In this document: one piece after another, positions 1,410 through 62,117 of the stretch
Position numbering within the stretch: position 1 is the first letter of the stretch
Layout of the letters: each line of letters opens with the position of its first letter
Origin: a bacterium
Lineage (GTDB): Bacteria > Omnitrophota > Gorgyraeia > Duberdicusellales > 4484-171
Direction: 5' to 3'
Assembly (NCBI GenBank): GCA_021796115.1
Contig: JAJYOP010000001.1
Location: 36,778 to 100,777, forward strand
DNA length: 64,000 nucleotides
Position numbers and translations under genes: made by a program
Notes under the pieces: generated by a model
What the model was told of the DNA's origin: nothing
Seen by the model: only the letters and a program-made list of their open reading frames with translations
Database searches by the model: none

Positions 1410-2177
1410 ATGAAAGTAGTAATTTTGGCAGGCGGGAAAGGAACGAGAATCAGCGAAGAAACTGAAAGTTTACCAAAACCAATGGTTGAAATAGGCGGCA
1501 ATCCTATCATCTGGCATATCATGAAACTATATTCTTCTTATGGTTTTAATGACTTTATCATCTGTCTTGGTTATAAAGGTTATATGATTAAAGAATATTT
1601 TTCGCATTATTTTTTGCACATGAGCGATGTAACTATAGATTTAAAAAACAATGACACTAAAATTCATGCAAGCACTTCAGAACCTTGGAAAATCACACTG
1701 GTCAATACCGGTTTGGAAACAATGACTGGCGGGCGTTTAAAGAGAATTGAGAAATATGTCCAAGGCAAAACATTTATGATGACTTACGGTGATGGCGTTA
1801 GTGATGTTAATATACCGGAACTGGTTAAAGCACATAAAATTAACAGGAAATTAGCTACCTTAACGGCAATACAAACTGCCGGTAGATTTGGCCTTCTGGA
1901 TATCGATAAGAAAAATAATATAAAATCTTTTTTGGAGAAACCAAAAACCGAAGGAAGTTGGATAAACGCCGGTTTCTTTGTTCTTGAGCCACAAATATTT
2001 GATTACATCGATGGAGATCTGACCATATGGGAAAAAGAACCATTAGAAAATTTAGCCAAAGAAGGACAGCTGAATGCTTATAAACATATGGGGTTTTGGA
2101 AGTGTATGGATACACTGCGGGATAAGATTGAATTAGAACGTTTATGGAATACTGATGATGCTCCTTGGAGAATATAA
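1410..2177 (+). CDS. rfbF: glucose-1-phosphate cytidylyltransferase (CDP-glucose pyrophosphorylase)
   Basis: N-terminus MKVVILAGGKGTRISEET..PKPMVEIGG.PIIWHIM and length 255 aa are characteristic of RfbF/DdhA. RBS GAGAGG lies upstream. Confidence 0.85.
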   Translation: MKVVILAGGKGTRISEETESLPKPMVEIGGNPIIWHIMKLYSSYGFNDFIICLGYKGYMIKEYFSHYFLHMSDVTIDLKNNDTKIHASTSEPWKITLVNTGLETMTGGRLKRIEKYVQGKTFMMTYGDGVSDVNIPELVKAHKINRKLATLTAIQTAGRFGLLDIDKKNNIKSFLEKPKTEGSWINAGFFVLEPQIFDYIDGDLTIWEKEPLENLAKEGQLNAYKHMGFWKCMDTLRDKIELERLWNTDDAPWRI

Positions 2178-3151
2178 AAATGAAAAACTTCTGGCAGAAT
2201 AAAAAAGTGCTTATAACCGGTTTCGAAGGGTTCTTGGGATCGAATTTAACCCTAAATTTGCTTTCTAAAGGGGCAAGTATTGTTGGGTTAGATATTCAAA
2301 CAGATAGAAAAGATACTATTTTCACACCGGAAGAATATAAAAAGATAAAAGTTATCAAAGGTGATGTTGCCGATTTTACTCTAGTAAAAAAAATTATCTC
2401 TGGTTCCAAAATAGAAATAGTCTTCCATCTGGCGGCAGAGGCCATCGTCGGTAAATCGCATCAAAATCCGCTAAAGACATTTTCTTCCAATATCGAAGGC
2501 ACGTGGAATATTTTGGAAGCCTGCCGTAACGCAAAGACAATTGAAAGCATAGTGGTTGCTTCAAGCGATAAGGCTTACGGAAGTCATAAAAAATTACCTT
2601 ACAGAGAGGACGCTCCGTTGATCGGCAACCACCCTTACGACGTTTCCAAGAGTTGCGCCGATTTAATTGCTTATACCTATTTTCACACTTACGGGCTTCC
2701 GGTAGCAGTAACGCGTTGCGGAAACATTTATGGGCCGGGAGATTTTAACTTTTCCCGCATAGTCCCTGACGCGATGCGTTCGGCGCTTTCCGGAAAAACT
2801 CTTCTTATCCGCAGTGACGGCAAATTCACCCGCGATTATGTTTATGTGGACGATATCGTCAACGGTTATATTATTTTGGCAGAAAGGCTCAATAAACTGG
2901 GTTTAGGCGGAGAATCCTTTAATTTCAGTGATGAAAATCCGATTACCGTCATAGAATTAGTGAATAAAATATTCAAGCTTCTCGGTAAAAAACCGGACTA
3001 TAAAATTCTTAATAAAGCGAACTACGAAATAAAGCACCAATATTTGGCTTCGCGAAAAGCCAGGACTCTTCTGGGATGGAAACCGGACAATACTCTTGCT
3101 GGAGGATTGAAAAAAACGCTTAAATGGTATTCTCACGGATTTGGAAGGTGA
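2165..3151 (+). CDS. rfbG: CDP-glucose 4,6-dehydratase
   Basis: NAD Rossmann motif VLITGFEGFLGSNL, an SDR-type YxxxK (YDVSK), 328 aa, and a 13-nt overlap with rfbF. Confidence 0.8.
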   Translation: MENIKMKNFWQNKKVLITGFEGFLGSNLTLNLLSKGASIVGLDIQTDRKDTIFTPEEYKKIKVIKGDVADFTLVKKIISGSKIEIVFHLAAEAIVGKSHQNPLKTFSSNIEGTWNILEACRNAKTIESIVVASSDKAYGSHKKLPYREDAPLIGNHPYDVSKSCADLIAYTYFHTYGLPVAVTRCGNIYGPGDFNFSRIVPDAMRSALSGKTLLIRSDGKFTRDYVYVDDIVNGYIILAERLNKLGLGGESFNFSDENPITVIELVNKIFKLLGKKPDYKILNKANYEIKHQYLASRKARTLLGWKPDNTLAGGLKKTLKWYSHGFGR

Positions 3152-6471: not shown

Positions 6472-8318
6472 GATTAGTGAAAAATCAATATTGGCTGAAG
6501 TTTGTTACGCAACACAAGTATGATTTTATCGCAGCCGCCTTCATCGTGGCTTTAATCCTACAGATGTTTTCGATGTTCTATCCGTATCTTTCCGGGAAAA
6601 TCGTTGTCGTTAATAATTATATTAATATCCCCGAAGAAACCAAGTCACCTTGCGGGTATATTGATAATTTGAAATATATCGGTTACGTGGCGAAACAAGA
6701 TGCGAATTTGCCTAAACAGCCGCCAAAAGACAATCCCGTAAATGACAAGCGTATAAGCAATGAGGGAACATTAAATAATTGTTTAAGTGTTAGCGAATTT
6801 TTTGACAAAAACCGCACAGAGCTTTCATGGTTGACTATGTGTGGGTGGTTTATGCACCATCATAACGCCCTTCTGGCGCCGATTAATGAATATACCTTGG
6901 GCAGGCATGTCAAAGACATATTTTTTATTTATGGCTCATTTAATACGATAATTCTCGCCGAGCTCATCAAAATGTCCGGCGGGGTAACGCTCGAAAATTA
7001 TTTTAAGGTGTTATATTCATTTTATCCGTTATATTACCTTCTTTTTCTGACGGTTATTTTTATAATCTTTAGGCGCACAAATTACCTGCTTTTATCAGCC
7101 ATCATTGCCTTTTCGTTTTTAAATAATCTTAATTTTATCAGTATCTATCTTGCTCCGGGCTTTAATCCCATACGGCAATTATTCTTTCTGCCCATGTTCT
7201 TATTTTTATATTTATATTTTAAGCAACAAAAAACTATCCTTTTCTTATTGGTCTGTTTTTTTTCTTTAGTGTCATTATTGGCCTGCAAAGAGTTCGGTAT
7301 TTGCGGCATACTGGCTTTATGCGCAATTATATTCATAAAGAATCTAAATGAAAAAAACCCGGCCAGAATGAAAGAGATAACGATTATCCTTATAACTTTG
7401 ATACTCGCATCATTATTCTGGCAACCGGGGAAAAGCAACGCAACAGGCGTCAATTCCCTTAAGTATTCTCTAAGACTGTTTGCACCTCTGGCAGGCAAAA
7501 ATCTTTTAAACTTTATATTAATATGCCTTAGTTTTTGTTATGTAGTTTTTATAAAAGTAATGAAAACCAAAGGATATTTGAAATATTTGGCGCTTTTCCT
7601 GTTTATATATTTTCAGGGAATTCTTGTCTATTACGTCTGGAATCCTGCGCCAAACCACTTTAGCAACATATCAATGCCTCTGGTGTTGATGATTATACTC
7701 ATATTGAAAATTTTCTTAAACAGCTCTCACTTAAAAAAATACGAAAATATTGCCGTAAACACATTAATAATTATTCTGTTTTTCGCTGCCTATCTGCCCT
7801 CCTTAAAATCATATTATTTGGAGAGATCGCCATATCAAAAAATAGTTGATGACCATAAAATCTATGATTGGGATTTGCCTGCCGCAAAGATAAAAAGCAC
7901 CATGAACCCCGGATATTTTTTAAATGCCGTTGAGCTTATACATAAATATTCTCCCGACAGTAATTCGATTTATATAATTTCCAAGTACGATAATTTATTA
8001 CCATTCCTTGCGCGCCGCTATTCGATGATGCCTTACCATGAGGTAGGGGTGAATTTGATAACGGAGAAAGAAGTGAAGCTGTGTATTGATGCTATATTGA
8101 GGGATAAACCGCAATATCTATTCGTTGATAGCGATATCGATGGCGATGAATTCCTTAATAACATAAAAAAATCATCTACTTTAAGAAGAGAAGGGTTAGA
8201 TCCTTCTCTTAAAATAGAAATGTCTGCCGAACTGAGAAAAATCTATTCCGGAGTAAAAGAGTATTACAATCTGCTAAAGCGGGGAGACATTATAAGCGTA
8301 TATAAGTTAAAAGGCTAG
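6468..8318 (+). CDS. family-2 paralog: large polytopic membrane protein with conserved C-terminal soluble domain (putative GT-C-type glycosyltransferase)
   Basis: The ATGA start/stop overlap with ORF 5188 indicates translational coupling. Conserved blocks shared with ORFs 9542 and 18523 are CGWFMHHHNALLAPINEY, NYFKVLYSFYP, SIYLAPGFNPIRQL, FQGILVYYVWNPAPNH, and a C-terminal IYIISKYDNLLPFLARRYSMMP..YLFVD. Confidence 0.5.
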   Translation: MRLVKNQYWLKFVTQHKYDFIAAAFIVALILQMFSMFYPYLSGKIVVVNNYINIPEETKSPCGYIDNLKYIGYVAKQDANLPKQPPKDNPVNDKRISNEGTLNNCLSVSEFFDKNRTELSWLTMCGWFMHHHNALLAPINEYTLGRHVKDIFFIYGSFNTIILAELIKMSGGVTLENYFKVLYSFYPLYYLLFLTVIFIIFRRTNYLLLSAIIAFSFLNNLNFISIYLAPGFNPIRQLFFLPMFLFLYLYFKQQKTILFLLVCFFSLVSLLACKEFGICGILALCAIIFIKNLNEKNPARMKEITIILITLILASLFWQPGKSNATGVNSLKYSLRLFAPLAGKNLLNFILICLSFCYVVFIKVMKTKGYLKYLALFLFIYFQGILVYYVWNPAPNHFSNISMPLVLMIILILKIFLNSSHLKKYENIAVNTLIIILFFAAYLPSLKSYYLERSPYQKIVDDHKIYDWDLPAAKIKSTMNPGYFLNAVELIHKYSPDSNSIYIISKYDNLLPFLARRYSMMPYHEVGVNLITEKEVKLCIDAILRDKPQYLFVDSDIDGDEFLNNIKKSSTLRREGLDPSLKIEMSAELRKIYSGVKEYYNLLKRGDIISVYKLKG

Positions 8319-8409
8319 AATCGCGGGAACAACAGAAGCTGATTTTTTGTATAAATAGGCGGATTTTTAGGTCGAACGATAACTCTAGAGGAAAGAAAGT
8401 TGCGGTTTT

Positions 8410-9558
8410 ATGAATAAACTTGGCAAAATACCGTTAATTTTAACTTTGTTTGCGGCTATATTTTATTTCGGCATAATTATTTGTTTAATATCGCCATGGT
8501 TAATCAGCAGCCACAAAAAATACAGCATTCAATCATTTGACAGCCATTCGGGAGAAAATTATAAAATCACGCACAAAGAGATCAAGACAGGAAAAAGTTT
8601 ATTAACGCGAGGCCTAAAGATAAACTTCCGCTTCAAGATTTACCATATTGACGGCTATGATAATCTCTTCCAAACTGCTCCGTATAATTCCGGTATCCGG
8701 ATGGAACTTTCCCCTCCCTCGACGCTGGCTTTGATAGCCGACTGCGGAATGCCGTGGGGGGTAAGGGGGTTTATCGTAAGCGATGAGATAGATACCGGCA
8801 GATGGTATAAAGTTATGATTACGATAAATAAATTTAATCACTTATCGGTTTTTTTGGATGGCCGGTCGATCGTAAACGAAACGCTCCCCTTTTTGCATTA
8901 CAGCCTTTCCGACATAGCCGCAGGTACCGGTTTTGACGGAACCAGGATGTTTAACGGAAAAATTTCTGATTTTAATATCGAAGCAGAAATGGTTTCGCAA
9001 CAGTTGTACGCAAAGTTAAATTTTCTAAAAAAAATTTTGGGAAATATTCTCATTTTCATGATACTTTTTAACATAGCAATCTTAATCGCCGATAAAAATA
9101 GCATCTTACTGCTTATTTTTTTTATTTATAGCTTTGGGTTGATAACTATTTTACCCCTGGTAGCGGATAAAGTTTTTTCCTATAACCTCTTCAACGGGGA
9201 AACTGTAGTCTTTAATGATTGGGCATTAAAATTTGTGTTTTCCGAAAAATCCAGGGATTTACTGTCTTACATATTCATGACCTTATCGCTTTTCTTATAT
9301 TATTTCCTGTTTTTTGTTCTGACATATACGCGCAAGGGCGGCCATGGCAGAATCTTTGCTTTATTCTTCGCGCAAAAGGAGTATAAGATTTGGCAGTATT
9401 TATTTATAGCAATGGCGGTAAATTTATTAATAATAAGATTAGGGAAAATATATCATGGGCCATATTTGCTAAGCTTTCAATATATTATATGGGTTCTCTC
9501 TTTTTTTGCATCCATACTAACCCCATTAATAAGAAATAAATATGTCCAGCAAATTTAA
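8410..9558 (+). CDS. family-1 paralog: membrane-anchored ConA/LamG-like domain protein with a multi-TM C-terminal region
   Basis: YDNLFQTAPYNSGIRMELSPPSTLALIAD..WYKVMITIN..DIAAGTGFDGTRMFNGKISDFNI, with an N-terminal TM helix. Confidence 0.5.
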   Translation: MNKLGKIPLILTLFAAIFYFGIIICLISPWLISSHKKYSIQSFDSHSGENYKITHKEIKTGKSLLTRGLKINFRFKIYHIDGYDNLFQTAPYNSGIRMELSPPSTLALIADCGMPWGVRGFIVSDEIDTGRWYKVMITINKFNHLSVFLDGRSIVNETLPFLHYSLSDIAAGTGFDGTRMFNGKISDFNIEAEMVSQQLYAKLNFLKKILGNILIFMILFNIAILIADKNSILLLIFFIYSFGLITILPLVADKVFSYNLFNGETVVFNDWALKFVFSEKSRDLLSYIFMTLSLFLYYFLFFVLTYTRKGGHGRIFALFFAQKEYKIWQYLFIAMAVNLLIIRLGKIYHGPYLLSFQYIIWVLSFFASILTPLIRNKYVQQI

Positions 9559-11377
9559 AAATACTAAGCATACCAGCGCGTTGCATAATATATTTAAAAT
9601 TAATTACCTATTATTATTTCTGGTTGCGGTAATTTTTATTCAAATTTTCTCTATGTTCATACCCTATCTTACGGGTAAAGTGCTTATTACGAATGACTAT
9701 ATTAATATATCCGAAACTACAAAATTGAGAGAAAGATATTTTGATAACACGGAATTTATTCAGAAAGAATGCCTGCGTCATTCCGGTTCTGGAGCAAAAA
9801 CTTTTACTTTGGCTACGGGAATGTCTGGAGGCGGCTACGCAAATTCAAATTTATCAAAGACATTTTTTTCTGCCAATCGTCATGAATTTGCATGGCAGTC
9901 TCAATGCGGATGGCTGATGCATCATCAAAATACTTTATTGTCGCCGATCAACCAGTTCTATTTAGGAAAACAATTGAGCAGAATCAGTCAGCAATACGGC
10001 AGTTTAACTACCGCCTTTTTAACATTCTTAATTAAACTCAGCGGCGGATTAACTTTTGACAATTATTTCAAAGTTCTTTATTTTTTCTACCCATTTTACT
10101 ATTTATTATTTTTTATTGTCTCCGCCTATCTGCTCCGGGACAGTAAGTATCTTTTGCTGGTGGCTGTACTTTCGGCGAGTTTTTTATTTAAACTTTCCTA
10201 TGTTTCCATATATTTGGCCCCGGGGTTTAACCCTATTCGGCAATTGCCGTCATTGCTGGTTTTATTCTTTCTCATGCTGTACCTTCGAAAACGGAAAACC
10301 TCTTCATTTTTCTTGATGCTGGCTTTCTCTATTTTAGCAGTTATTAACAATAAAGAATTTGGATTTTTTGCCGTTGCCGCCGCCACCATAAGTTTGTTTC
10401 TTGAAAATTTCCTTGAAAAAATACCCTTGGGCAGGGGGAAATTTTTTTTCCTGACAGCAACTTTTTTGATTTCTGTTTATCTATTCTTTTTTATACATAT
10501 GGGCAGCAACCCCCTAGAGAAATATTATTTTGTGGGGATCTCGGGGCCTATTATTGACAAGTTTATCTTAAAACTAATCCTGATCATTTTTAGTTTGGTT
10601 TATTTCCTGATCTATAGATTATTGAGGCGCGATAGTGGCCTAAAATATATAGCTGTTTTTTTGTTCTTTTATATTCAAGGAATATTGCTTTATTATATCT
10701 GGGATCCGGCCCCTAACCACTTATTTAGTATATCTAGTCCCCTGGCGCTTTTACCGGTTATTTTGTTAAAGCTTATACTGGATGGTTGGCAGAGGGATAT
10801 AAATAGGAATTTAGTTATTGTGCCCCTTGTTTTGTGCTTATTTTCATTTTTATATTTACCTTCCTGGCGCGGGTACAATAAGGAAAAAGCAATATACCAG
10901 AAAATTTCCGCTGACCATAAAATTTATTCCTGGGATCTTGCGCGAGCGAGGATTAAAACCACCATGAATCCGGAATATTTTATAAACGCAGTCAACCTGA
11001 TACAAAAATATTCAAAAAACAGCAATGGGATTTACATCATATCACAATACGATAATTTTTTGCCGTTTCTCGCGCGAAAATACAGCGCAATGCCGTTTGA
11101 CGAGGTAGCTATAAGTTTATTAACCAGCCGCGAGGTAAATGACTGCATTAATAAAATCTTAAACGATAAACCAGAATACATTTTTATTGATACAGGAATC
11201 GAAGAGGGTATCTATGACAAAGATAAGAATAAAATCCTTGCTTATTTGTCTGCACATTATGATTTTTCCAATAAAATCAAAATGTGGCACGAGCTAAAAA
11301 AAGTCTATATGGGCGTAAAGGATTCCTACCGGTTGATTGAAAAAAGTGATATAATTAGCGTTTATAAAAAGAAATAA
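9542..11377 (+). CDS. family-2 paralog: large polytopic membrane protein with conserved C-terminal soluble domain
   Basis: Overlaps ORF 8410 by 17 nt. Shares all conserved blocks with ORF 6468: CGWLMHHQNTLLSPINQF, SIYLAPGFNPIRQL, YIQGILLYYIWDPAPNH and the C-terminal IYIISQYDNFLPFLARKYSAMP..YIFIDT. Confidence 0.5.
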   Translation: MSSKFKNTKHTSALHNIFKINYLLLFLVAVIFIQIFSMFIPYLTGKVLITNDYINISETTKLRERYFDNTEFIQKECLRHSGSGAKTFTLATGMSGGGYANSNLSKTFFSANRHEFAWQSQCGWLMHHQNTLLSPINQFYLGKQLSRISQQYGSLTTAFLTFLIKLSGGLTFDNYFKVLYFFYPFYYLLFFIVSAYLLRDSKYLLLVAVLSASFLFKLSYVSIYLAPGFNPIRQLPSLLVLFFLMLYLRKRKTSSFFLMLAFSILAVINNKEFGFFAVAAATISLFLENFLEKIPLGRGKFFFLTATFLISVYLFFFIHMGSNPLEKYYFVGISGPIIDKFILKLILIIFSLVYFLIYRLLRRDSGLKYIAVFLFFYIQGILLYYIWDPAPNHLFSISSPLALLPVILLKLILDGWQRDINRNLVIVPLVLCLFSFLYLPSWRGYNKEKAIYQKISADHKIYSWDLARARIKTTMNPEYFINAVNLIQKYSKNSNGIYIISQYDNFLPFLARKYSAMPFDEVAISLLTSREVNDCINKILNDKPEYIFIDTGIEEGIYDKDKNKILAYLSAHYDFSNKIKMWHELKKVYMGVKDSYRLIEKSDIISVYKKK

Positions 11378-11378
11378 A

Positions 11379-12257
11379 ATGAATATATTTATTACCGGCG
11401 GTTCCGGTTTTATCGGAAAGAATATCATAGAATTTTTATCCAAAAAACATACTGTTTTCGCCCCTCCCCATAAGGAATTGGAGCTTTTGGATGCGGATGC
11501 GGTTAAAAAGTATTTCGAGCGTTATTATTTTGATGTAGTTATTCACAGCGCGGTGCGTCCCGGTCACAGGAACGCCAAAGACCCGACGAACCAGCTTTAT
11601 AACAACCTGCGCATGTTTTTTAATCTCATGCGCAACAAGAGCCGTTTTAAGAAGCTTATTTTTATCAGTTCAGGAGCGGTCTATGATATAACGCGTTCAT
11701 TGTCGATGGTTAATGAAGATTTCTTTGATGCGTATGTTCCGGCCGATGAGCATGGATTTTCAAAATATATTATTGCAAAACACATAGAACAGCTTGACAA
11801 TATAGTCGAATTGCGCGTTTTCGGCATATTCGGCAAATACGAGGATTACGCGATAAGGTTCATATCAAACGCTATATGCAAAACAATTTTTGACTTGCCT
11901 GTAACCATAAAACAGAATAGAAGATTCAGCTATTTATATATTAATGATTTTGTACCAATTCTTGATTATTTTATCAATAATGATTGCAGATATAAGGCAT
12001 ACAATGTTACGCCGGATGAAGGCATAGAATTATGCGATATAGCCAAGAAAGTAAGAAGTATTTCTGGGAAAGATTTGCCCATAAATATTGCCAAATCCGG
12101 AATGGGGCTTGATTATAGCGGCAGTAATAAAAGGTTGCATAACGAAATCAAGGGCTTAAAATTCACCGGCATCGATTCGGCGATTAAAGAACTACATGCT
12201 TGGTACTTGCAGAACGCCGCTTCAATAAACAGGGATTTTTTACTTTTTGATAAATAG
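11379..12257 (+). CDS. NAD-dependent epimerase/dehydratase family protein (nucleotide-sugar epimerase/reductase)
   Basis: MNIFITGGSGFIGKN Rossmann motif and YIIAK (YxxxK), 292 aa. Confidence 0.7.
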   Translation: MNIFITGGSGFIGKNIIEFLSKKHTVFAPPHKELELLDADAVKKYFERYYFDVVIHSAVRPGHRNAKDPTNQLYNNLRMFFNLMRNKSRFKKLIFISSGAVYDITRSLSMVNEDFFDAYVPADEHGFSKYIIAKHIEQLDNIVELRVFGIFGKYEDYAIRFISNAICKTIFDLPVTIKQNRRFSYLYINDFVPILDYFINNDCRYKAYNVTPDEGIELCDIAKKVRSISGKDLPINIAKSGMGLDYSGSNKRLHNEIKGLKFTGIDSAIKELHAWYLQNAASINRDFLLFDK

Positions 12258-12259: not shown

Positions 12260-14068
12260 ATGATTAAATTATCGGATTATATAGTCAAATTGTTCCTTGA
12301 ACATAAAGTCAGAGATGTCTTTATGATATCGGGCGGAGGAGCCATGCATCTTATTGACTCCGTGGGTAAGGAAAAGAAGATAAAATATTTATGCCCGCAT
12401 CACGAACAGGCGGCGGCAATGGCGGCCGAAGGGTATTCACGGGTCAGTGGGAAAATGGGAGTAGTTGTGGTGACTAGCGGCCCGGGAGGTACGAATACCC
12501 TCACTGGTGTTATTCAGCAATGGCTTGACTCAATCCCTTGCCTTTATATATCCGGGCAGATTAAGGAAGAAACAAGTATTGTTTCTTGCCCTGATTTGGG
12601 ATTACGGCAATTAGGCGACCAGGAGATAAATATTGTAGATATCGTCCGGCCCGTAACCAAATATGCGGTTATAGTCAGAGATCCTTTAAGTATTCGCTAT
12701 CATCTGGAAAAAGCCATATACCTGGCTACGCATGGCCGGCCGGGGCCAGTATGGCTGGACATTCCTTTAAACGTCCAGCCAGTTATGATTGATGAAAATA
12801 GATTAGAAGGGTTTAAGCCTGATACAGAAATAGAAAGAAAGAAGCTTCAACTTTCAAAACAAATTTCCGAAACAATAGCTTTGTTAAGAAAAGCAGAAAG
12901 GCCTGTATTTTTAGCGGGGCATGGTATAAGGCTTTCAGGCGCGCAGGATGTTTTCAGGGGATTCATAGAAAAAACCCGCATCCCCGTTTTGACTACTTTT
13001 TGCGGCTTTGATTTATTGCCGTCGGATCACCACTTATATGCGGGCAGAGTGGGGACTTTGGGCAACCGTTCTGGCAACTTTGCTTTGCAAAACGCGGATG
13101 TTTTGCTCTCTGTCGGTTCCAGGAATAATATCCGGCAGGTAAGTTATAATTGGAAGGTTTTTGCGAGGGCCGCCAAGAAAATTGTCGTAGACATAGATGA
13201 AGCTGAACTAAAAAAACCAACAATTAAGCCGGATGTAGCGATTCAAGCCGATGCCAGAGTTTTCTTGACGGAGCTTCTTAAACAAAGTAAAACCATAAAA
13301 TTTCCTGTTTGGAACAAATGGCTTAATTGGTGCATGATACGTAAAAACAAATATCCAGTGGTGTTAAAAGAGTATTGGAAAAGCAATAATCCAGTAAATC
13401 CTTATTGCTTTATAGAAACCTTGACGAATGTTTTAAAAAGAGATACCATTCTCGTTTCAGCTAATGGAACTGCCTGCGTGACATTGTTTCAGGCAGGGGT
13501 TGTTAAAGAAGGCCAGAGAATGTTTTGGAATTCCGGCTGCGCCTCTATGGGCTACGATTTGCCGGCAGCAATCGGCGCGTGCGTGGCTAATAATAATAAA
13601 CCGGTGGTATGCCTGGCGGGAGACGGCAGCCTGCAGATGAATATCCAGGAACTTGAGACCGTTATTGCCTATAATCTGCCAGTAAAGATTTTTGTTCTTA
13701 ACAACAACGGGTATATTTCGATGCGCCAGACGCAGGATGCGTTTTTTTCGGGAAGATATGTCGCCTGCGGCCCCGAAAGCGGAGTAAAATTTCCCGATAT
13801 TTTAAAGGTAGCCAAAGCTTACGGATTTAAGACAAAATCAATAAGCGCTCATAACGAGATGAAGAGAAAAATAAAAGAGGTCCTTAAAACTACGGGTCCG
13901 GTGCTATGCGAAGTAAAAATATCGCAAGATTATAAATTTATCCCCAAAGTATCGTCGCAGTTAAAACCGGACGGCAAATTGGTTTCAAAGCCTCTGGAGG
14001 ATATGTTTCCCTTTTTGCCGCGCGAAGAATTTTATAGCAATATGATTATAAAACCATTACCTGAATAA
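12260..14068 (+). CDS. thiamine-diphosphate-dependent enzyme, acetolactate-synthase/YerE-like
   Basis: TPP-enzyme N-domain (HEQAAAMAAEGYSRVSGKMGVVVVTSGPGGTNTLTGV) and the C-terminal TPP-binding motif GDGS..N-x(25)-NN (CLAGDGSLQMNIQELE..VLNNNGY). 602 aa. Confidence 0.75.
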   Translation: MIKLSDYIVKLFLEHKVRDVFMISGGGAMHLIDSVGKEKKIKYLCPHHEQAAAMAAEGYSRVSGKMGVVVVTSGPGGTNTLTGVIQQWLDSIPCLYISGQIKEETSIVSCPDLGLRQLGDQEINIVDIVRPVTKYAVIVRDPLSIRYHLEKAIYLATHGRPGPVWLDIPLNVQPVMIDENRLEGFKPDTEIERKKLQLSKQISETIALLRKAERPVFLAGHGIRLSGAQDVFRGFIEKTRIPVLTTFCGFDLLPSDHHLYAGRVGTLGNRSGNFALQNADVLLSVGSRNNIRQVSYNWKVFARAAKKIVVDIDEAELKKPTIKPDVAIQADARVFLTELLKQSKTIKFPVWNKWLNWCMIRKNKYPVVLKEYWKSNNPVNPYCFIETLTNVLKRDTILVSANGTACVTLFQAGVVKEGQRMFWNSGCASMGYDLPAAIGACVANNNKPVVCLAGDGSLQMNIQELETVIAYNLPVKIFVLNNNGYISMRQTQDAFFSGRYVACGPESGVKFPDILKVAKAYGFKTKSISAHNEMKRKIKEVLKTTGPVLCEVKISQDYKFIPKVSSQLKPDGKLVSKPLEDMFPFLPREEFYSNMIIKPLPE

Positions 14069-14085: not shown

Positions 14086-14889
14086 ATGAATGTTTTAGAG
14101 AATCGCATGATCAATATTTTAAAAGAGCTGAAGGAGAAGAACGGCGCAATTGCCGTAAGGGCCGAGTTTGAAGCTGAAGGCACAAGACTTGACGAATTAT
14201 TCCGCCTTAAAGAGATAAGCGTACGCGCCGGTTTGGGCCTGGTTTTAAAAATAGGCGGCTGCGAATCCATAAGAGATATGCTTGAATCACGCATCGTGGG
14301 GGTAAATTGCCTGGTCGCACCCATGGTTGAATCCGCTTACGCCTTACGCAAATATTTGCAGGCGATAAAGAAAGTTTTCACGGCCCAGGAGCGCAAAAGC
14401 ATAAAAATTTCATGCAATATCGAAACGGTGACCGCCTGCCAAAATCTAAAAGAAATGCTTGAAATACCTGAGATAAGCGTGCTTCACGGCATAGTTATAG
14501 GAAGGGTGGATTTATGCTTTTCTTCGGGGAAAAACGAAGAATACGTTAATAACAAAGAAATAACCAAATTAGTCCGCGAGGCAATTGCCGCCGCAAAGAA
14601 GAAGAATCTTGTCTGTATGATGGGCGGAGGGTTATCTCCGGAAAGTATGGAAATTTTTAAAGATCTGTCCGATGGCGCTCTTGATTATTGTGAAACAAGA
14701 AAGGTTTGCTTTTTGTATCCGAAACTTTTGGCCACCGATTATAAAAAAGGCATCTTAAAAGCTCTTGGTTTTGAATTGTTATGGCTCAAGAATAAAGCAA
14801 CATATTATAAAGGCATTACCGATGCCGACAAAGCAAGGCTGTCTTTGATTGAGCAGAAGTATTTAAATGAATTGGACTCTCTGATTTGA
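14086..14889 (+). CDS. HpcH/HpaI aldolase / citrate-lyase-beta family protein (paralog 1)
   Basis: CLVAPMVESAYAL matches the PMVE(T/N) motif of the family. NIETVTA..GIVIGRVDL matches the QIET..GvfiGPaDL motif. Confidence 0.55.
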   Translation: MNVLENRMINILKELKEKNGAIAVRAEFEAEGTRLDELFRLKEISVRAGLGLVLKIGGCESIRDMLESRIVGVNCLVAPMVESAYALRKYLQAIKKVFTAQERKSIKISCNIETVTACQNLKEMLEIPEISVLHGIVIGRVDLCFSSGKNEEYVNNKEITKLVREAIAAAKKKNLVCMMGGGLSPESMEIFKDLSDGALDYCETRKVCFLYPKLLATDYKKGILKALGFELLWLKNKATYYKGITDADKARLSLIEQKYLNELDSLI

Positions 14890-14937: not shown

Positions 14938-15732
14938 GTGACTATTACCGAACTTAAAATGGTCGATATATTGAAAAAGTTGAAAGACTTATATTACGCC
15001 GTAGGCGTAAAGGCCGAGTTTGAAGCTGAAGGGACGCGCACTGAAGAACTGGTCAGGCTTAAGGAGCTCTGCCTTGCCGCAGATGTCTCACTCACCTTAA
15101 AAATTGGAGGCTGTGAAGCCATTCGTGATATGTATGACGCGAGGGCTATTGGCGTTAATTATATGGTTGCCCCCATGGTAGAAACGCCTTTTTCTCTGCA
15201 GAAGTATTTAAAAGCTATTGATATAGTTTTTTCCGCAGACGAACAGGAAGAAATAGACTTTCTTATTAATATTGAAACAAAACTAGCGGCAGATAATTTT
15301 TCCGATATGTTGAAGATAACAGAAATTAAAAAACTCGACGGTATCGTAATGGGCCGAGTTGATTTTGTTGGTTCTATGGGGCTTGATAGAAAAGCAGTCA
15401 ACGGCGATAATATATTGACCATTACACGGGACCTTATTTCTGCGGCAAAAATGCATGATTTAACTTGTGTTGTCGGTGGCGCAATTTCTGTGGAGTCCCT
15501 GCCATTTTTAAGAAAATTGCCCAAAGCTTGTCTGGATAGGTATGAGACTAGAAAGATATGCTTTTCTTGTCCCGAAGCGCTTGGCGAAACCGCAGACAAA
15601 GGCATTTCAAAAGCTGTTGAATTTGAACTACTATGGTTAAAAAGTAAGCAAAATTATTATACAGCTATTTCTAAAGAGGATGATAAGCGTATAACAATGC
15701 TTGAAGAAAGATTCAGGCAGAGTAAAAAATAA
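14938..15732 (+). CDS. HpcH/HpaI aldolase family protein (paralog 2, tandem duplicate of 14086..14889)
   Basis: Roughly 45% identical to the upstream ORF (AEFEAEGTR, KIGGCEAIRDM, MVAPMVETPF, NIETKLA, GIVMGRVDF). GTG start with RBS AAAGGAGG. Confidence 0.55.
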   Translation: MTITELKMVDILKKLKDLYYAVGVKAEFEAEGTRTEELVRLKELCLAADVSLTLKIGGCEAIRDMYDARAIGVNYMVAPMVETPFSLQKYLKAIDIVFSADEQEEIDFLINIETKLAADNFSDMLKITEIKKLDGIVMGRVDFVGSMGLDRKAVNGDNILTITRDLISAAKMHDLTCVVGGAISVESLPFLRKLPKACLDRYETRKICFSCPEALGETADKGISKAVEFELLWLKSKQNYYTAISKEDDKRITMLEERFRQSKK

Positions 15733-15779: not shown

Positions 15780-16448
15780 ATGGTCAAAAGAAGAGCCCTT
15801 ATAACAGGCGGTTCACGTGGCATAGGCAAGGCCATTGTCGACTTGCTGGAAGATAAAGGCATCTTTGTATTGGCTCCTTCCAGAAAAGAAATGAATTTGC
15901 TCTCTGATTCCGCCATAGATAAATATCTCTCTTCTTTAAAAAAGCCAATCGACATAATAATTAATAACGCAGGAATTAACCTTTTATCGGCAGGGTATGA
16001 ATTGGAAGAAGACAATATCAGGGAGAGTTTACAGGTAAATCTGCTTGCGCCTTTACGCATCATAAGGAAAATTATTCCTGATATGATGCATCAGAAATAT
16101 GGCCGCATAGTAAATATAAGCTCCATATGGAGCGTTATTACTAAGCCGAGGCGTTTAACCTATACAATGACAAAATCAGGATTAAATGGAATGACTAAAT
16201 CTTTAGCTATAGAATTGGCTCCATATAATATCCTTGTTAACTGTATTGCCCCAGGATACGTTAATACAGAGCTTACGAGAAAAAACAATTCTTCAGAAGA
16301 GATAGAAAATATAAAAAATACAATCCCTCTAAAACGTTTGTCAGAACCTGTAGAAATAGCTGAAATTGTATCTTTCCTTGTTTCAGAAAAAAATTCTTAT
16401 ATCACAGGCCAGGTAATCATTGCAGATGGAGGGTATACATGCCTGTGA
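15780..16448 (+). CDS. short-chain dehydrogenase/reductase (SDR)
   Basis: ALITGGSRGIGKAI, NAGI and YTMTK (YxxxK), 222 aa. Confidence 0.8.
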   Translation: MVKRRALITGGSRGIGKAIVDLLEDKGIFVLAPSRKEMNLLSDSAIDKYLSSLKKPIDIIINNAGINLLSAGYELEEDNIRESLQVNLLAPLRIIRKIIPDMMHQKYGRIVNISSIWSVITKPRRLTYTMTKSGLNGMTKSLAIELAPYNILVNCIAPGYVNTELTRKNNSSEEIENIKNTIPLKRLSEPVEIAEIVSFLVSEKNSYITGQVIIADGGYTCL

Positions 16449-17533
16449 TTAAAATAAAATCAAATATTGGTAATTATAATGTTTTATTTGGAAATATCGC
16501 CGCATATTTAAAAGACATTGAAAAAAGAGGATTACGGAAATGTTATATTATCGATGAGAATGTTTGGAAAATATATAATAAAAAAGAATTAAATAATATC
16601 AATAAAGACGAAGCGATAATCTTACCAATTTCAGAAACAAAAAAAAATCTTAATACGGTAAAATGGTTATATAATACACTTATTGAACGTTCTGCAAAAC
16701 GTAATCTGACGATTATCTCTGTTGGTGGAGGTATCACTCAAGACATTACGGGCTTTCTTGCTTCAACATTGTATCGCGGAGTTAACTGGATATTCATTCC
16801 GACAACGTTTCTGGCTCAAGCCGATAGTTGCATAGGAAGTAAAACATCTTTGAACTATCGAAATTTCAAAAATCTGATTGGCACCTTTTACCCGCCGTCA
16901 GAAGTTTTCATTGACCCAGGTTTTATTTATAGCCAAAAAACTCTTGATTTTTATAGCGGTCTCGGAGAAGTTATAAAACTTCATCTTATGGGTGGGATTG
17001 ATAAAACAAAAGATTTGCTCCGGGCGTATCCCGAAATCATTGCGAAAGATAGAAAAACATTAGAAAAAATAATTTACAATGCACTTACCATAAAAAAAGC
17101 TTATATAGAAAACGATGAATTCGATAGAGGAAAAAGAAATTTACTTAATTATGGCCATTGCTTTGGCCACGCGCTGGAAACAACATCCAGATTTAAAATA
17201 CCTCACGGCATCGCGGTTTTGTTCGGTATGATGCTGGCTAATATTATTGCCTGTAGCAGAAATCTTCTTAAAAAAGATTTTAAAGAATTTATTTTTAGCA
17301 AAGTATTTTTACCTTCAGCATGTATCTTACCGAAAAAATCCTGGCTGCAGAAAGAGGCTGTGTTAGGCGCAATGAAAAAAGATAAAAAACGCACAGGAAA
17401 AGATCTGGCGTTAATCATGCTAATGGATGGTTGCCGCATGATGAGGGTAAATGACGTGTCAGAGAAAGAGGCTATTAATGCCTTAAGACAATTGGAATAC
17501 TGTTTAAACAAAGATTCCCTTAATAAGTTATAA
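16439..17533 (+). CDS. 3-dehydroquinate-synthase-like sugar-phosphate cyclase family protein
   Basis: GGGITQDITGFLASTLYRGVNWIFIPTTFLAQADSCIGSKTSLN, KNLIGTFYPP, GEVIK and NYGHCFGHALE all align with the DHQS-family signature blocks (nucleotide-binding site and metal-His sites). Confidence 0.7.
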   Translation: MPVIKIKSNIGNYNVLFGNIAAYLKDIEKRGLRKCYIIDENVWKIYNKKELNNINKDEAIILPISETKKNLNTVKWLYNTLIERSAKRNLTIISVGGGITQDITGFLASTLYRGVNWIFIPTTFLAQADSCIGSKTSLNYRNFKNLIGTFYPPSEVFIDPGFIYSQKTLDFYSGLGEVIKLHLMGGIDKTKDLLRAYPEIIAKDRKTLEKIIYNALTIKKAYIENDEFDRGKRNLLNYGHCFGHALETTSRFKIPHGIAVLFGMMLANIIACSRNLLKKDFKEFIFSKVFLPSACILPKKSWLQKEAVLGAMKKDKKRTGKDLALIMLMDGCRMMRVNDVSEKEAINALRQLEYCLNKDSLNKL

Positions 17534-17544: not shown

Positions 17545-18489
17545 ATGCAAAAAATTATTTCAATAGTTATATCTGCTTTTAACGAGGAGGGTTGCGTAGA
17601 AGAATTAGCTATCCAACTTAAAAAAGTATTTGCGCAAAATAATAATTATACATTTGAAGTTATCATGGTCGATAATGGCTCTACAGATAGGACTTTTGAA
17701 AAGCTTTTCGAAATACACAGAAGTGACGACAAATTCAGAATACTTCAATTGGCAAGGAATTTCGGCATGGATGGCGGCATAACTGCCGGCTTAAAATATG
17801 CAAAAGGGGATGCTGCTGTAATAATGACAGCAAATTTACAAGATACACCTTCTTTGATTACCGAATTTATAAAAAAATGGGAAGAAGGTTATGAAAATGT
17901 TTATGGTATCGTCAAAAAACGCACAGGTAAAGGTCTGATTCGTAGAATGAATTCGCAAATTTTTTATTTTATCATTAACCGTATGACAGGCAGCCTGATA
18001 CCGAAGAATGTAAGCGATTTTAGGCTGGTAGATAGGAAGATTTATCAAACAATCAATGTGATGGATGAAAGGAACAGGTTTTTAAGGGGGATGTTTGCCT
18101 GGGTGGGTTTTAAGTCTGTCGGTATAGAATATGAGAGAGGCAAGAGGTTTGCGGGAAAATCTCACGCGCTTTCAAAGAATGTCTTTTCGTTGGCTATTAG
18201 AGGAATTTTCGCTTTTTCTTATGTACCTATACGTTTTATCGCTGCCTCAGGATTCCTCCTGTCGTTATTTTCTTTTATTTTTCTTATAATTTCTATTTTA
18301 GGGTTTTTTATAAAAGGAGTACCTTTTAAAGGATACGGAATGATTGTTTCTTTGATAGTATTTATGTTTAGTTTGGTATTTTTTATTTTGGGCATATTGG
18401 GCCAATATATAGCTCAGATTTACGAAGAAGTAAAGGCAAGGCCTAATTATATAGTAAAAAAGCTAGTCGGGCTTACTGAGGCGAAGTAA
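17545..18489 (+). CDS. GT2 polyprenyl-phosphate glycosyltransferase (GtrB/ArnC/DPM1-like) with C-terminal TM helices
   Basis: IVISAFNEEGCV..VIMVDNGSTDRT GT2 N-domain with two C-terminal hydrophobic helices, 314 aa. This architecture is typical of undecaprenyl-phosphate sugar synthases. Confidence 0.75.
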   Translation: MQKIISIVISAFNEEGCVEELAIQLKKVFAQNNNYTFEVIMVDNGSTDRTFEKLFEIHRSDDKFRILQLARNFGMDGGITAGLKYAKGDAAVIMTANLQDTPSLITEFIKKWEEGYENVYGIVKKRTGKGLIRRMNSQIFYFIINRMTGSLIPKNVSDFRLVDRKIYQTINVMDERNRFLRGMFAWVGFKSVGIEYERGKRFAGKSHALSKNVFSLAIRGIFAFSYVPIRFIAASGFLLSLFSFIFLIISILGFFIKGVPFKGYGMIVSLIVFMFSLVFFILGILGQYIAQIYEEVKARPNYIVKKLVGLTEAK

Positions 18490-18522: not shown

Positions 18523-21027
18523 ATGAATAAGATTAACATAGCCGTTAAAAACATTATAAAAAAAAATATATTTATACTTTCCGCAACACAATTACTTCTT
18601 TCCGTTATTTTCGGCGCCGTTTGTTTGTGGAAAGGCGTAAATTTTTTAAAGAACCAGACGATAATTATTGCCAATTCCAATTTTAACCCCTGGGTTTATC
18701 CTTTTTTTCACCCTACCGAATACTCACTGCCTAATTATTTGTTTCTATGTTTATTACTTGCTTTGGTAGGAATTTTGATATATATTTTGAATCCCACCAA
18801 AATAATAAAAAGATTTTCTGAAACGGTATCCCCTTATTATCTGCTTATTTCGTTGGTTGCTTCCGTCTCTTTTTTCTTTATATTTTTTATTCAAAGCTGT
18901 TTTGTGCATTCAGACCCCGGCCGCCTGCTTGGCTTATTTTTCCCCGCTTTGATTGCGATAGTGCCTTTCGTGCCGAATATTTTTTCCTTTTCGAATAAAT
19001 ATTTGTATAAATCGGCCGTAATCGTTTTATTTTTAATAATCGTATGGGAAGTGTTAAGAATTTTTATGGGCCCGGTATATATTATGAATGAATACCCAAG
19101 GCTATATGGTAAAACATTAATAGAAGGCAGATACGTAGATAACAAGGATTTCTTAGAAAAAGTCAAGCCGATAGATAAAGAGTTAATCAAACTTGCCGTT
19201 TTTTATCGCGACAAAAATAAATACAAAGGTATCGGCGGGTATTACAAGATAAAAAAATATAAAAATTTAAGGTTAGAGCAAAATTTTATCAATCTGCTTA
19301 ATGACGATGGATTCAATATCCTGATTGATAATTTTATCAAAGGAAACACTCATTTTGTCGACAAAGGAAACATTTTAGAATTAGATGAAATAGCTTTGCA
19401 AAATGACAATAATTTGGCAAGTATCATGCGAAGCCGCTTAAGGCAGATAGACGTAGAAAATATAAGGCTCTTTTATGTTTATAACATGCTTGAATATTAC
19501 CATCAGGACATGGGGCGGGGGCAGATTAACCATATCGGTTACGTATTGAATCCTTTGAACGAATATAGCTCCGGCAAGCCGCTGAAAGAGCTTTATATGC
19601 AATACGGCTTAGGCAATACCTTGCTCATGAAGTGGACGATGGGGCTTTTCGGAGGCATGTCCATTCAAAATTACTATAAATGTTATATATATTACATTAT
19701 ATATTTCATTCTTGCTTTCTTTACCCTGCAGTTTCTTTTTAGAAATATTTTTTTCAGCCTCGCTTCTTTTGCCGCTTTTACCTATTCGTTGTTCGGCGTA
19801 GGATTCCTCGGTTTTATTTTGGCCCCCGGCATAATACCCACCATACATTTTTTTGACATAATAGTCTTAACGTTTTTAATCCTGTTCTTTAAACGCAACA
19901 ACAAAGCCTATCTGACAGCAGCTTTTCTGTCAACGGCGCTAGCCATTTTTATAAACGCTCAATTCGGGGCAATGCTTATGCTGGCCTGCTTTATCTCCTT
20001 TACCCTCTATATTCTTGAGAATAAGAAAGGCAACCCCAAGTTAATGTGGTTAGCCACGCTATTTATCGCATTAATATTGAATATCGCTTTGCTGTTATTT
20101 TTACTGGAGAGGACCTCTTCTTTGGATATTTTTAAATATCTTGTCAGCGGTTTTCTTTCCTGGCCGGCTCACTTTATAATTATTTTCCTTACGATCGTAT
20201 ATTTGATTATTTCTTATGCCTTTATGTTTTTATTAAAAAGGCACAGATTTTATCTTAAGTATATTTATGCCTTTTTTTTCATCTATACGCAATTTCTGTT
20301 TGTCTATTATTATTGGTCCGGTTTGCCGAACCACCTTCCGATGGTCATACCGTTTCTTTGCACGCAGCTGTTTTTAATGCTGTTCATACTAAGAACAGAA
20401 ATATTCGGTTTCTCTGAATATTTGATAATAATGGTCGATATCGTGGCAAAAGTATTTTTGATTATCGTAGGGTTTCTCCTGCTTATATCAATAATAAGTT
20501 TTTATAGGGAAAAAAACCAGTTTGAGGAAAACTTTGCGCAACATAGACTTCATCACTGGGATTTTGAGCGTGCCAAAGTTTTATCCACAGTCGATCCCGT
20601 TCCAATAGAAGACAGCATAACATTGATAAATAAGTATGTGCCGCAGGAGGAAGGCGTATATATTATTTCAAAATACGATAATTTAATCCCGTTTTTAGCC
20701 AAAAAGCCAAGCCTGATGCCTTTTTCCGAAATGGCCGTCTTCCTGATTTCCAAAAAAGAAAGCGATACGACAATACAAAAAATAGAGCGGATCAAGCCAA
20801 GATACATTTTTGTTGATAACGATATCAGCGAAAATATTAATGATCCCTGGGGAAAATTATTTAGCAACAACTTTATTAATACCGAAAGAGCAGCAAGGTA
20901 CGGCAGGTATATGGAGTTAAAGAAGCTCTTTGACCGGATCATCCCTCACTATAAGAAAATTTTTCAGGGTAAACTGCTTTCTGTCTATGAGAGGATACCC
21001 GGTGGACAGCCAAAGGATAAAATATAG
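18523..21027 (+). CDS. family-2 paralog (divergent, 834 aa): polytopic membrane protein with an extra N-terminal/soluble insertion and the conserved C-terminal domain; putative GT-C partner of the upstream GtrB-like enzyme
   Basis: Shares GQINHIGYVLNPLNEY..GG.SIQNYYK, the PNH motif (WSGLPNH) and the C-terminal VYIISKYDNLIPFLAKKPSLMP..YIFVDND with ORFs 6468 and 9542. Confidence 0.5.
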   Translation: MNKINIAVKNIIKKNIFILSATQLLLSVIFGAVCLWKGVNFLKNQTIIIANSNFNPWVYPFFHPTEYSLPNYLFLCLLLALVGILIYILNPTKIIKRFSETVSPYYLLISLVASVSFFFIFFIQSCFVHSDPGRLLGLFFPALIAIVPFVPNIFSFSNKYLYKSAVIVLFLIIVWEVLRIFMGPVYIMNEYPRLYGKTLIEGRYVDNKDFLEKVKPIDKELIKLAVFYRDKNKYKGIGGYYKIKKYKNLRLEQNFINLLNDDGFNILIDNFIKGNTHFVDKGNILELDEIALQNDNNLASIMRSRLRQIDVENIRLFYVYNMLEYYHQDMGRGQINHIGYVLNPLNEYSSGKPLKELYMQYGLGNTLLMKWTMGLFGGMSIQNYYKCYIYYIIYFILAFFTLQFLFRNIFFSLASFAAFTYSLFGVGFLGFILAPGIIPTIHFFDIIVLTFLILFFKRNNKAYLTAAFLSTALAIFINAQFGAMLMLACFISFTLYILENKKGNPKLMWLATLFIALILNIALLLFLLERTSSLDIFKYLVSGFLSWPAHFIIIFLTIVYLIISYAFMFLLKRHRFYLKYIYAFFFIYTQFLFVYYYWSGLPNHLPMVIPFLCTQLFLMLFILRTEIFGFSEYLIIMVDIVAKVFLIIVGFLLLISIISFYREKNQFEENFAQHRLHHWDFERAKVLSTVDPVPIEDSITLINKYVPQEEGVYIISKYDNLIPFLAKKPSLMPFSEMAVFLISKKESDTTIQKIERIKPRYIFVDNDISENINDPWGKLFSNNFINTERAARYGRYMELKKLFDRIIPHYKKIFQGKLLSVYERIPGGQPKDKI

Positions 21028-59556: not shown

Positions 59557-59623
59557 GGCAAAAATATTTTTAATAACTAATATCGAAATCCGAATGACGA
59601 ATAGGGATTAGACGTTTAAAATC

Positions 59624-61669: not shown

Positions 61670-61689
61670 TGCGCTTGGAGTGGGCGTAT

Positions 61690-61768
61690 AACCCCCTCAC
61701 TTCGTTCGGGGGTAATTCCAATGAGACTTGTTTTTTGCGAAGCAAAAAACTTAGTCGAATTGTCATTA
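61690..61768. repeat. mosaic hairpin-rich intergenic element (copy 2 of 2)
   Basis: CCCCC..GGGGG hairpin carrying GTTCGGGGGTAATTC, then CAATGAGACTTG, the GTTTTTTGC-GAA-GCAAAAAAC hairpin (61731..61751), and TTAGTCGAATTGT. See the companion copy at 40993..41117. Confidence 0.6.
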
Positions 61769-61781
61769 AAAGGAGGTTCAA

Positions 61782-61964
61782 ATGGCTTTTCCAGGAAGAA
61801 ACACATCAAAAAGTTCCAATTCCAACCTTGATGCGGCAAAAATCAATCAGATGATAAAAGAGCGCGCCTATTACCTTTGGGAAAGTAAAGGAAAACCGCA
61901 AGGCCAAGATGCAAACATCTGGCTTCAGGCAGAGAAAGAAATTCGCGCTAAAATAAAAAAATAA
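61782..61964 (+). CDS. DUF2934-family small protein
   Basis: IKERAYYLWESKGKPQGQDANIWLQAEKEI matches the DUF2934 core. RBS AGGAGG 6 nt upstream. 60 aa. Confidence 0.6.
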   Translation: MAFPGRNTSKSSNSNLDAAKINQMIKERAYYLWESKGKPQGQDANIWLQAEKEIRAKIKK

Positions 61965-61984
61965 CCCTTTGGGAAAAAGCAGCG

Positions 61985-62038
61985 TTTTCCGCTCATGAGG
62001 CGGATCCGCCCACCTATAAAAATATATCTGTGGCGGAA
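61985..62038 (+). promoter_or_regulatory. conserved 54-bp palindrome/promoter-like element (copy 2): TTTTCCGCTCATGAGGCGGATCCGCCCACCTATAAAAATATATCTGTGGCGGAA
   Basis: About 85% identical to 41496..41546, with the same CCGCCCAC..GTGGCGG inverted repeat around TATAAAAATAT. 80 nt upstream of the ACT-domain gene. Confidence 0.55.
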
Positions 62039-62117
62039 GCGTAGAGCGCACAGCGTTTAGGTAAAACCATAGGCTATTTGCTATCCGCTATACGCTAAAA
62101 AAAGGGAGGTGCGTTCT

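Follow-up and report, generated by a model that had tools for sequence, protein, structure and literature searches.

The acyl-branched sugars yersiniose, erwiniose, caryophyllose and gastriose have been brought under a unifying biosynthetic scheme by Steitz et al. 2022 (PMC9306805). In this scheme, an aldolase yields a 4-hydroxy-2-oxo acid donor, a YerE-like enzyme dependent on thiamine diphosphate (ThDP) decarboxylates the donor and adds it to C4 of the cytidine diphosphate (CDP) sugar CDP-4-keto-3,6-dideoxyglucose, and a reductase completes the side chain. The published comparison set comprises yersiniose YerE/YerF, erwiniose ErwE/F/I/J, caryophyllose MMAR_2331/2332 and the gastriose clusters, and the origin of the 4-deoxy-tetrose that the scheme requires is left open (PMC9306805). 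Here we analyse a stretch of 64,000 nucleotides (hereafter the window, to which our gene searches apply) from an uncultured, metagenome-assembled genome of the Omnitrophota (assembly GCA_021796115.1, contig JAJYOP010000001.1, positions 36,778 to 100,777). It holds a locus of the acyl-branched-sugar type that contains, in addition, a short-chain dehydrogenase/reductase (SDR) gene followed by a gene for a dehydroquinate synthase (DHQS)-like protein. What is new is that this SDR/DHQS-like pair is invariant inside such clusters; our literature searches, which did not take in the in-silico survey of YerE-like clusters by Krug et al. 2024, found no papers on the pair in this setting.

The DHQS-like gene (16439..17533, forward strand) starts with ATG, has a GGAGG motif ~7 nt 5′ of that codon and encodes 364 residues. 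Its open reading frame (ORF) shares a 10-nt overlap, ATGCCTGTGA, with the upstream SDR gene (15780-16448), to which it is translationally coupled, and a glycosyltransferase family 2 (GT2) gene begins 11 nt 3′ of it. The original prediction, which had the gene overlapping an SDR and preceding a GtrB-like lipid-sugar synthase, described this arrangement correctly. Scans for promoters and terminators gave matches at chance level only. The protein matches the Pfam N-terminal domain DHQ_synthase (PF01761; 6e-34, 116.6 bits) and the C-terminal domain DHQS_C (PF24621; 1.5e-29, 103.3 bits). An AlphaFold model, built from an input of 26 family sequences, has a mean predicted local distance difference test score (pLDDT) of 90.3 and superposes on solved bacterial DHQS structures with template modelling (TM) scores of 0.83–0.86.

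The top NCBIfam model for the protein is TIGR04425 (409.6 bits against a cut-off of 400, over model positions 1–344 of 348), whereas the housekeeping aroB model TIGR01357 gives 256.6 bits, under its cut-off of 305. NCBIfam labels TIGR04425 ‘AroB-related putative sugar phosphate phospholyase (cyclizing)’ and ranks it as a hypothetical equivalog. Judged by its sequence, the protein belongs to the DHQS/sugar-phosphate-cyclase superfamily and, within it, to TIGR04425: it passes the family cut-off, carries both family motifs described below and differs in no way in kind. The nearest solved sequences are true DHQS enzymes (~1e-39); 2-deoxy-scyllo-inosose synthase (DOIS; 6e-31), the 2-epi-5-epi-valiolone synthase (EEVS) ValA (3e-25) and desmethyl-4-deoxygadusol synthase (DDGS; 1e-20) are more distant. 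No TIGR04425 members were found on plasmids, where all matches were ordinary aroB, DOIS or sedoheptulose-7-phosphate cyclase sequences of at most 35% identity.

The original prediction had placed the protein among the enzymes that make cyclitols or aminocyclitols outside the shikimate pathway, and had proposed a comparison of active-site residues. We carried out this comparison on an alignment of the DHQS-like window protein and 25 relatives with reference enzymes, using the numbering of the Aspergillus nidulans DHQS (AnDHQS). The sequences of AnDHQS (1DQS; full length, numbering verified), BtrC (a DOIS), ValA and DDGS were recovered from PDB alignment printouts, and that of Escherichia coli AroB was taken from the K-12 genome. 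The DHQS residue stands at 14 of 14 active-site positions in the window protein and in each of its 25 relatives; these positions are (window residue in brackets) R130 (R113), D146 (D129), K152 (K135), N162 (N145), E194 (E177), K197 (K180), K250 (K219), R264 (R233), L267 (L236), N268 (N237), H271 (H240), H275 (H244), H287 (H256) and K356 (K316). The zinc or metal ligands E177, H240 and H256 (AnDHQS E194, H271 and H287) are invariant in 26/26 members, as is the glycine-rich NAD motif GGG at residues 96–98 of the window protein. The pocket residues specific for 3-deoxy-D-arabino-heptulosonate 7-phosphate (DAHP), R130, K152, N162, K250, R264, N268, H275 and K356, are likewise kept in the window protein and in the 25 relatives.

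The cyclitol-forming enzymes share the superfamily, the fold and the NAD+/metal chemistry with the window protein and depart from it at these positions. BtrC (2D2X) carries R264G, N268E and K356N, with F at L267 (its own fingerprint being G239/E243/N321). ValA (4P53) carries K250M, N268D, H275P and K356V, with V at L267 (M269/D287/P294/V364), and DDGS (5TPR) carries K250M, R264D, N268A, H275P and K356T, with I at L267 (M284/D298/A302/P309/T379). Neither the sedoheptulose-7-phosphate cyclase fingerprint (K250M, N268D/A, H275P, K356V/T) nor the DOIS fingerprint (R264G, N268E, K356N) is present in the window protein, which has K219, N237, H244 and K316 at the former positions and R233, N237 and K316 at the latter. 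The proposed likeness to cyclitol or aminocyclitol synthases therefore did not hold up: a DHQS residue stands at every fingerprint position (K250, R264, N268, H275 and K356) and the protein falls outside the DOIS, EEVS and DDGS groups. On these residues it is not an EEVS, a DDGS or a DOIS. The original prediction had named as its refutation that the gene be the only aroB homologue in the genome and that it retain all DAHP-specific residues; the second of these two halves is what we find.

All 26 aligned family members keep both K250 and R264, and BtrC, ValA and DDGS have each changed at least one of the two. Because all 14 DHQS residues are invariant, and because K250 and R264 are altered in cyclases whose substrates have no carboxylate, the substrate is probably DAHP or a very close free 3-deoxy-heptulosonate 7-phosphate, and not sedoheptulose-7-phosphate or glucose-6-phosphate. 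Compared with eight canonical AroB sequences, just four positions are conserved in both groups yet different between them: G118Q, S148C, A193G and E260D (Q101, C131, G176 and D229 of the window protein). At the last of these, BtrC, ValA and DDGS also have E, and 26/26 family members have D. The protein thus resembles AroB (EC 4.2.3.4; 1DQS, 1XAG, 6LLA) in its two-domain fold, its 14/14 active-site positions and its GGG motif. It differs in its ~30% identity, its score under the equivalog cut-off, the four family substitutions and a glycan/branched-sugar context in place of aro genes.

The genes of this context all lie on the forward strand and are closely packed, from RfbF through the GT2 to the genes for a membrane protein of 834 residues, a flippase-like protein, a methyltransferase, a PMT_2 protein and further glycosyltransferases. 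CDP-glucose would be supplied by a glucose-1-phosphate cytidylyltransferase, RfbF (1410..2177; TIGR02623, 406.8 bits, cut-off 300), and modified by a CDP-glucose 4,6-dehydratase-like protein (2165..3151) that is RfbG-like, with TIGR02622 as its top NCBIfam model (229.6 bits, under the cut-off of 278). An extended SDR of 292 residues from the epimerase/reductase family (11379..12257; Pfam Epimerase, 5e-21) is a candidate for a YerF-like side-chain or 4-keto reductase. The next gene (12260..14068) encodes a ThDP enzyme of 602 residues. Its closest solved relatives are JanthE (8RPH, 2e-125) and then 5AHK (8e-86), which we take to be PpYerE, both far above acetolactate synthases. JanthE is described in the literature as a YerE-like carboligase, and by homology the window enzyme is YerE-like rather than a standard acetolactate synthase. 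In the public annotation, its gene begins 84 nt downstream and gives 574 residues, leaving off 12260-12344; because the alignment with 8RPH already sets in at residue 3 of the 602-residue ORF, 12260 is probably the true start.

Between the ThDP gene and the pair lie two genes for HpcH/HpaI-type aldolases. Copy A (14086..14889, forward strand, 267 residues) matches Pfam HpcH_HpaI with 37.8 bits. Copy B (14938..15732, forward strand, 264 residues, GTG start) is a divergent class II (pyruvate) aldolase of the same type (39.9 bits, cut-off 25). Profile comparison (hhalign) of copy B with E. coli YfaU/GarL gives a probability of 95.6%. In this alignment, two conserved residues, the E in the family motif NIET and the D in the family motif GRVD, fall opposite the E in VQVES and the D in GPADL of YfaU, which are presumably metal ligands. 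Its model has a pLDDT of 95, and the closest folds are HpaI, HpcH and SbnG. The source annotation reads ‘aldolase/citrate lyase family’, the same label that the M. marinum aldolase carries in the published scheme (PMC9306805). Copy A is found only in the loci nearest to the window (Omnitrophota, Elusimicrobia, some delta-proteobacteria and Planctomycetes), and most other loci have one aldolase copy, of the B type.

The classical SDR that follows (15780..16448, forward strand, 222 residues) is FabG-like (Pfam adh_short_C2, 4e-44). Downstream of the DHQS-like gene, the GT2 protein (17545..18489, forward strand) has TM-like (transmembrane-like) segments at its C terminus and resembles polyprenyl-phosphate sugar synthases of the GtrB/ArnC/PgfS kind. 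We call it GtrB-like because its best NCBIfam matches, PgfS (1.5e-69) and ArnC (4e-37), are polyprenyl-phosphate glycosyltransferases. The wider surroundings are those of a glycan locus by Pfam, with flippases, glycosyltransferases of families GT1, GT2, GT9 and GT87, a PMT_2 protein, an O-antigen-ligase-like protein, a Bac_transf protein and a methyltransferase. ORFs of at least 120 residues were scanned against Pfam. The original prediction had noted that aroK, aroA and aroC are absent nearby, and indeed none of these, nor any other shikimate gene, is among the scanned ORFs of the 64 kb window; a six-frame search of the same window found no second DHQS homologue.

To follow the family across genomes we used its two motifs, DSCIG[SGA]KTS and N[YF]GH[CD]FGH, which occur in 489 of 185,579 species-level genomes. 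Among the carriers are Elusimicrobia, Omnitrophota, Chloroflexota, delta-proteobacteria and Geobacter, Nitrospirota, Planctomycetes, Melainabacteria, Firmicutes (Paenibacillus and Effusibacillus), Sulfuriferula and Nitrosospira. Cultured strains that carry the gene include Sulfuriferula multivorans TTN, Geobacter sp. AOG1, Effusibacillus consociatus CCUG 53762 and a Paenibacillus strain. We analysed 84 loci, of which 62 have at least 6 kb of upstream sequence, counting homologues within the fetched locus. An SDR homologue lies directly 5′ of the DHQS-like gene in 83 of the 84 loci and is present in 61 of the 62 with sufficient upstream sequence. In this subset, a ThDP-enzyme homologue is found in 58/62 loci, a keto-acid synthase (an HpcH-type aldolase or a NeuB-type protein) in 59/62, RfbF in 43/62 and a DegT-family gene of 435–465 residues in 42/62. 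Two representatives of the last score as RfbH, the E1 3-dehydrase (715–724 bits, cut-off 423). We had considered the DegT-type 435-residue gene as an aminotransferase of an acarviose-like, N-linked cyclitol, and this was ruled out by its identity as RfbH at 724 bits.

In 43/53 loci the extended SDRs number two or more, which suffices for a 4,6-dehydratase plus one further reductase; a constant position for an extended SDR 5′ of the ThDP gene was ruled out, as it is directly upstream in just 31/64 loci. A homologue of the GtrB-like GT2 follows directly 3′ of the DHQS-like gene in 30/84 loci. In loci of the Chloroflexota type, a divergent NeuB-family gene (for example 8258-9346 in locus L087), which scores far under the PseI and NeuB cut-offs, takes the position of the HpcH-type gene, with the ThDP gene on one side and the SDR on the other. 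The swap looks like non-orthologous displacement within the cassette. NeuB proteins are phosphoenolpyruvate (PEP)-dependent ulosonic-acid synthases, and the replacement of the HpcH-type gene by a NeuB-type gene at the same position indicates that the step encoded there is synthesis of a 3-deoxy-2-keto (ulosonic) acid. Neither a kinase nor a ligase was seen in the gene lists of the loci that we read; a homologue of haloacid dehalogenase (HAD) phosphatases is present in a few loci.

The conserved partners, CDP-glucose genes together with a keto-acid synthase and a ThDP enzyme of the YerE type, indicate an acyl-branched sugar pathway. On gene content, the window locus fits this cluster type gene for gene, with CDP-glucose genes, a YerE-like carboligase, an aldolase, NAD(P)H reductases and a methyltransferase close by, plus the SDR/DHQS-like pair. 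The link to glycan biosynthesis outside the shikimate pathway that the original prediction had drawn is borne out by the presence of the pair in glycan-type cassettes in 83 of the 84 related loci, and the evidence supports a glycan role for the DHQS-like protein, as an AroB paralogue in a surface-sugar pathway and not in aromatic amino-acid synthesis. An acyclic 7-deoxy keto acid fits the acyl-branched context at least as well as a cyclitol in the glycan, which was the product first proposed. Because the window has no RfbH, its sugar would retain the 3-hydroxyl; among caryophyllose-like sugars, examples that bear a hydroxyl at position 3 and others that bear an O-methyl group there have been described (PMC9912281), and a methyltransferase gene is present in the locus. 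Bradyrhizose and caryose were also considered as products and were ruled out, as ring closure at C5 of the original sugar (in the structures as we read them) mismatches DHQS chemistry.

The reading that we tentatively prefer, at rather less than even confidence, is that the SDR/DHQS-like pair strips the phosphate from an aldolase-made DAHP-like acid and so provides a 7-deoxy keto-acid donor for the carboligase. The aldolase would join pyruvate (or PEP) and erythrose-4-phosphate to give a DAHP-like 3-deoxy-heptulosonate 7-phosphate; as no kinase was seen in the cassettes, the phosphate would come from a primary metabolite. The DHQS-like enzyme, with its DAHP-type pocket and bound NAD+ and Zn, would then carry out the first two steps of DHQS chemistry, oxidation of C5 and elimination of the 7-phosphate. 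Because K250 and R264 are both invariant, it would act on the free acid, before decarboxylation by the ThDP enzyme. The coupled SDR would reduce the keto/enol product to 3,7-dideoxy-heptulosonate, with no ring formed. A non-cyclized product is proposed here because the ThDP donor must be a 2-keto acid, which ring closure of the DHQS type consumes. By analogy with the published scheme, the ThDP enzyme would decarboxylate this acid and add it to C4 of CDP-4-keto-6-deoxyglucose, the extended SDR would reduce the side-chain ketone to give a branched CDP-sugar of the caryophyllose class, and the GtrB-like GT2 would place the sugar on polyprenyl phosphate for transfer outside the membrane.

Among the routes that we constructed, phosphate elimination appears to be the sole single linear one that uses all of the conserved genes. 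After coupling and reduction, 3,7-dideoxy-heptulosonate would leave a 1,3,4,5-tetrahydroxyhexyl branch, exactly the side chain of caryophyllose (PMC5706390). By our own derivation, the two terminal stereocentres of that side chain (D-erythro) agree with erythrose-4-phosphate. A more specific proposal, that a non-cyclizing ‘deoxygenase’ of DHQS fold together with the SDR makes 3,7-dideoxy-heptulosonate and thereby the unexplained terminal-deoxy donor of caryophyllose-class sugars, is possible and more doubtful still. The nucleoside diphosphate (NDP)-hexose 4,6-dehydratases offer a mechanistic analogy only: they too use transient NAD+ oxidation beside the carbon bearing the leaving group, followed by elimination, to yield a terminal deoxy (methyl) group, with a separate ketoreductase. 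They differ in having an unrelated fold (extended SDR) and in losing water and not phosphate, and we know of no DHQS-fold enzyme that works in this way.

Several points weigh against phosphate elimination. To our knowledge, ring closure is common to all characterized enzymes of the DHQS/sugar-phosphate-cyclase superfamily, and in classical DHQS chemistry the enol-pyranose intermediate cyclizes spontaneously. The near-identity of the family pocket to that of AroB favours ordinary DHQS chemistry. The identity of the acceptor aldehyde, which we infer to be erythrose-4-phosphate, is a weak point of the scheme. The acyl-branched clusters were described without a DHQS-like gene, so that the pair is extra here; the window differs from them further in having no RfbH; and 11 of the 62 loci have no CDP-sugar genes within 10 kb. 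Our literature searches found no papers on TIGR04425 or tying the family to any reaction.

Because all characterized members cyclize and the family pocket barely differs from that of AroB, cyclization is almost as likely as the favoured route. Here the enzyme would convert DAHP, or a DAHP-like acid, to 3-dehydroquinate or a stereoisomer, and the SDR would reduce the ring ketone to give a quinate-like cyclitol carboxylate, which would be placed in or on the glycan; alternatively, the carbocycle would serve as a cyclic-ketone acceptor for the YerE-like enzyme. The carbocyclic sugar of the original prediction thus reappears here in a DAHP-type form. The conserved 14/14 residues with just four family substitutions, the DHQS fold and the word ‘cyclizing’ in the family name given by the NCBI curators all speak for such a cyclase. 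Dehydroquinate may locally resemble the 3-deoxy-4-keto sugar accepted by YerE, and carbocyclic lipopolysaccharide (LPS) sugars of unexplained biosynthesis do exist, namely caryose (PMC9092360) and bradyrhizose (PMC4743980). In the cassettes, however, we saw no conserved ligase, acyltransferase or nucleotidyltransferase with which a cyclitol acid could be activated or attached, the cyclized product has no 2-keto acid and so would be no ThDP donor, and the strong linkage to RfbF, RfbG and RfbH points to a CDP-keto sugar, not dehydroquinate, as the acceptor of the carboligase. We regard the cyclase as a serious contender, if at less than even confidence.

Two other explanations fare much worse. 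The gene could be a housekeeping aroB for the shikimate pathway that sits in a glycan locus by chance, as every DAHP-binding and catalytic residue is kept and the 64 kb window contains no other DHQS homologue. Against this, its score is under the aroB cut-off and over that of TIGR04425, and the family motifs are patchy and scattered over many phyla. The SDR/ThDP/aldolase cassette is constant, and no second DHQS or aro genes were found in any of the 84 loci, whereas the canonical aroB genes that we retrieved stand beside aroC, aroA, aroK or aroE. We therefore consider a housekeeping role very unlikely. Equally improbable to us is cyclization after coupling, in which the ThDP enzyme would attach a phosphorylated DAHP-like chain to the CDP-sugar and the DHQS-like protein would close a cyclohexane at sugar C4: such a route would use every conserved gene, yield a carbocycle-bearing sugar and suit the place of the DHQS-like gene as last in order before the GT2, but the carboxylate would be lost on coupling while K250 and R264 are invariant, and the DHQS pocket, which closes around a small substrate, leaves no evident room for a CDP-sugar.

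Beyond the GT2 gene lies a gene for a polytopic membrane protein of 834 residues with ~14 TM-like segments and no Pfam match (18523..21027, forward strand), a candidate for the transferase of the lipid-linked sugar. It is one of three paralogous polytopic membrane proteins in the locus (6468-8318, 9542-11377 and 18523-21027; 616, 611 and 834 residues), which have 9–14 TM-like segments, are 30–45% identical to one another (the 834-residue copy is 30% identical to the other two) and match no Pfam or NCBIfam model. Homologues stand beside the cassette in ~10 other loci, and the three may belong to a so far undescribed family that transfers or polymerizes lipid-linked sugars. Three further proteins, one of the GT87 family at 3124-5118 (664 residues) and two shorter ones at 5188-6471 (427 residues) and 8410-9558 (382 residues), have in common an N-terminal module of ~200 residues with 29–41% identity; the 382-residue protein also has a weak Laminin_G_3 match. 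Elsewhere in the glycan locus, a protein of 575 residues (28501-30228) has an S-adenosylmethionine (SAM) methyltransferase domain at its N terminus and, in addition, a weak protein-kinase-like region. At 56401-63731, three successive glycoside hydrolase family 57 (GH57) genes, including a branching-enzyme type and an amylase/4-alpha-glucanotransferase type, are flanked by a DUF4912 gene just 5′ and a GH1 gene 3′; this glycogen/alpha-glucan cluster is unrelated to the DHQS-like gene.

TIGR04425 is a catalogued, widespread and uncharacterized family. By its constant position in cassettes of the YerE type, it gives the pathway scheme put forward in 2022 one more step to explain. The ThDP and aldolase partners of the pair are relevant to biocatalysis for tertiary alcohols. 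If the DHQS-like protein is a cyclase, a dehydroquinate-type carbocycle would be used in a surface glycan, which would also be new. If the pair instead carries out deoxygenation, this would be a new type of reaction for the sugar-phosphate-cyclase superfamily, present in ~500 mostly uncultured species, and the source of the terminal-deoxy side chains of caryophyllose-like sugars would be explained.

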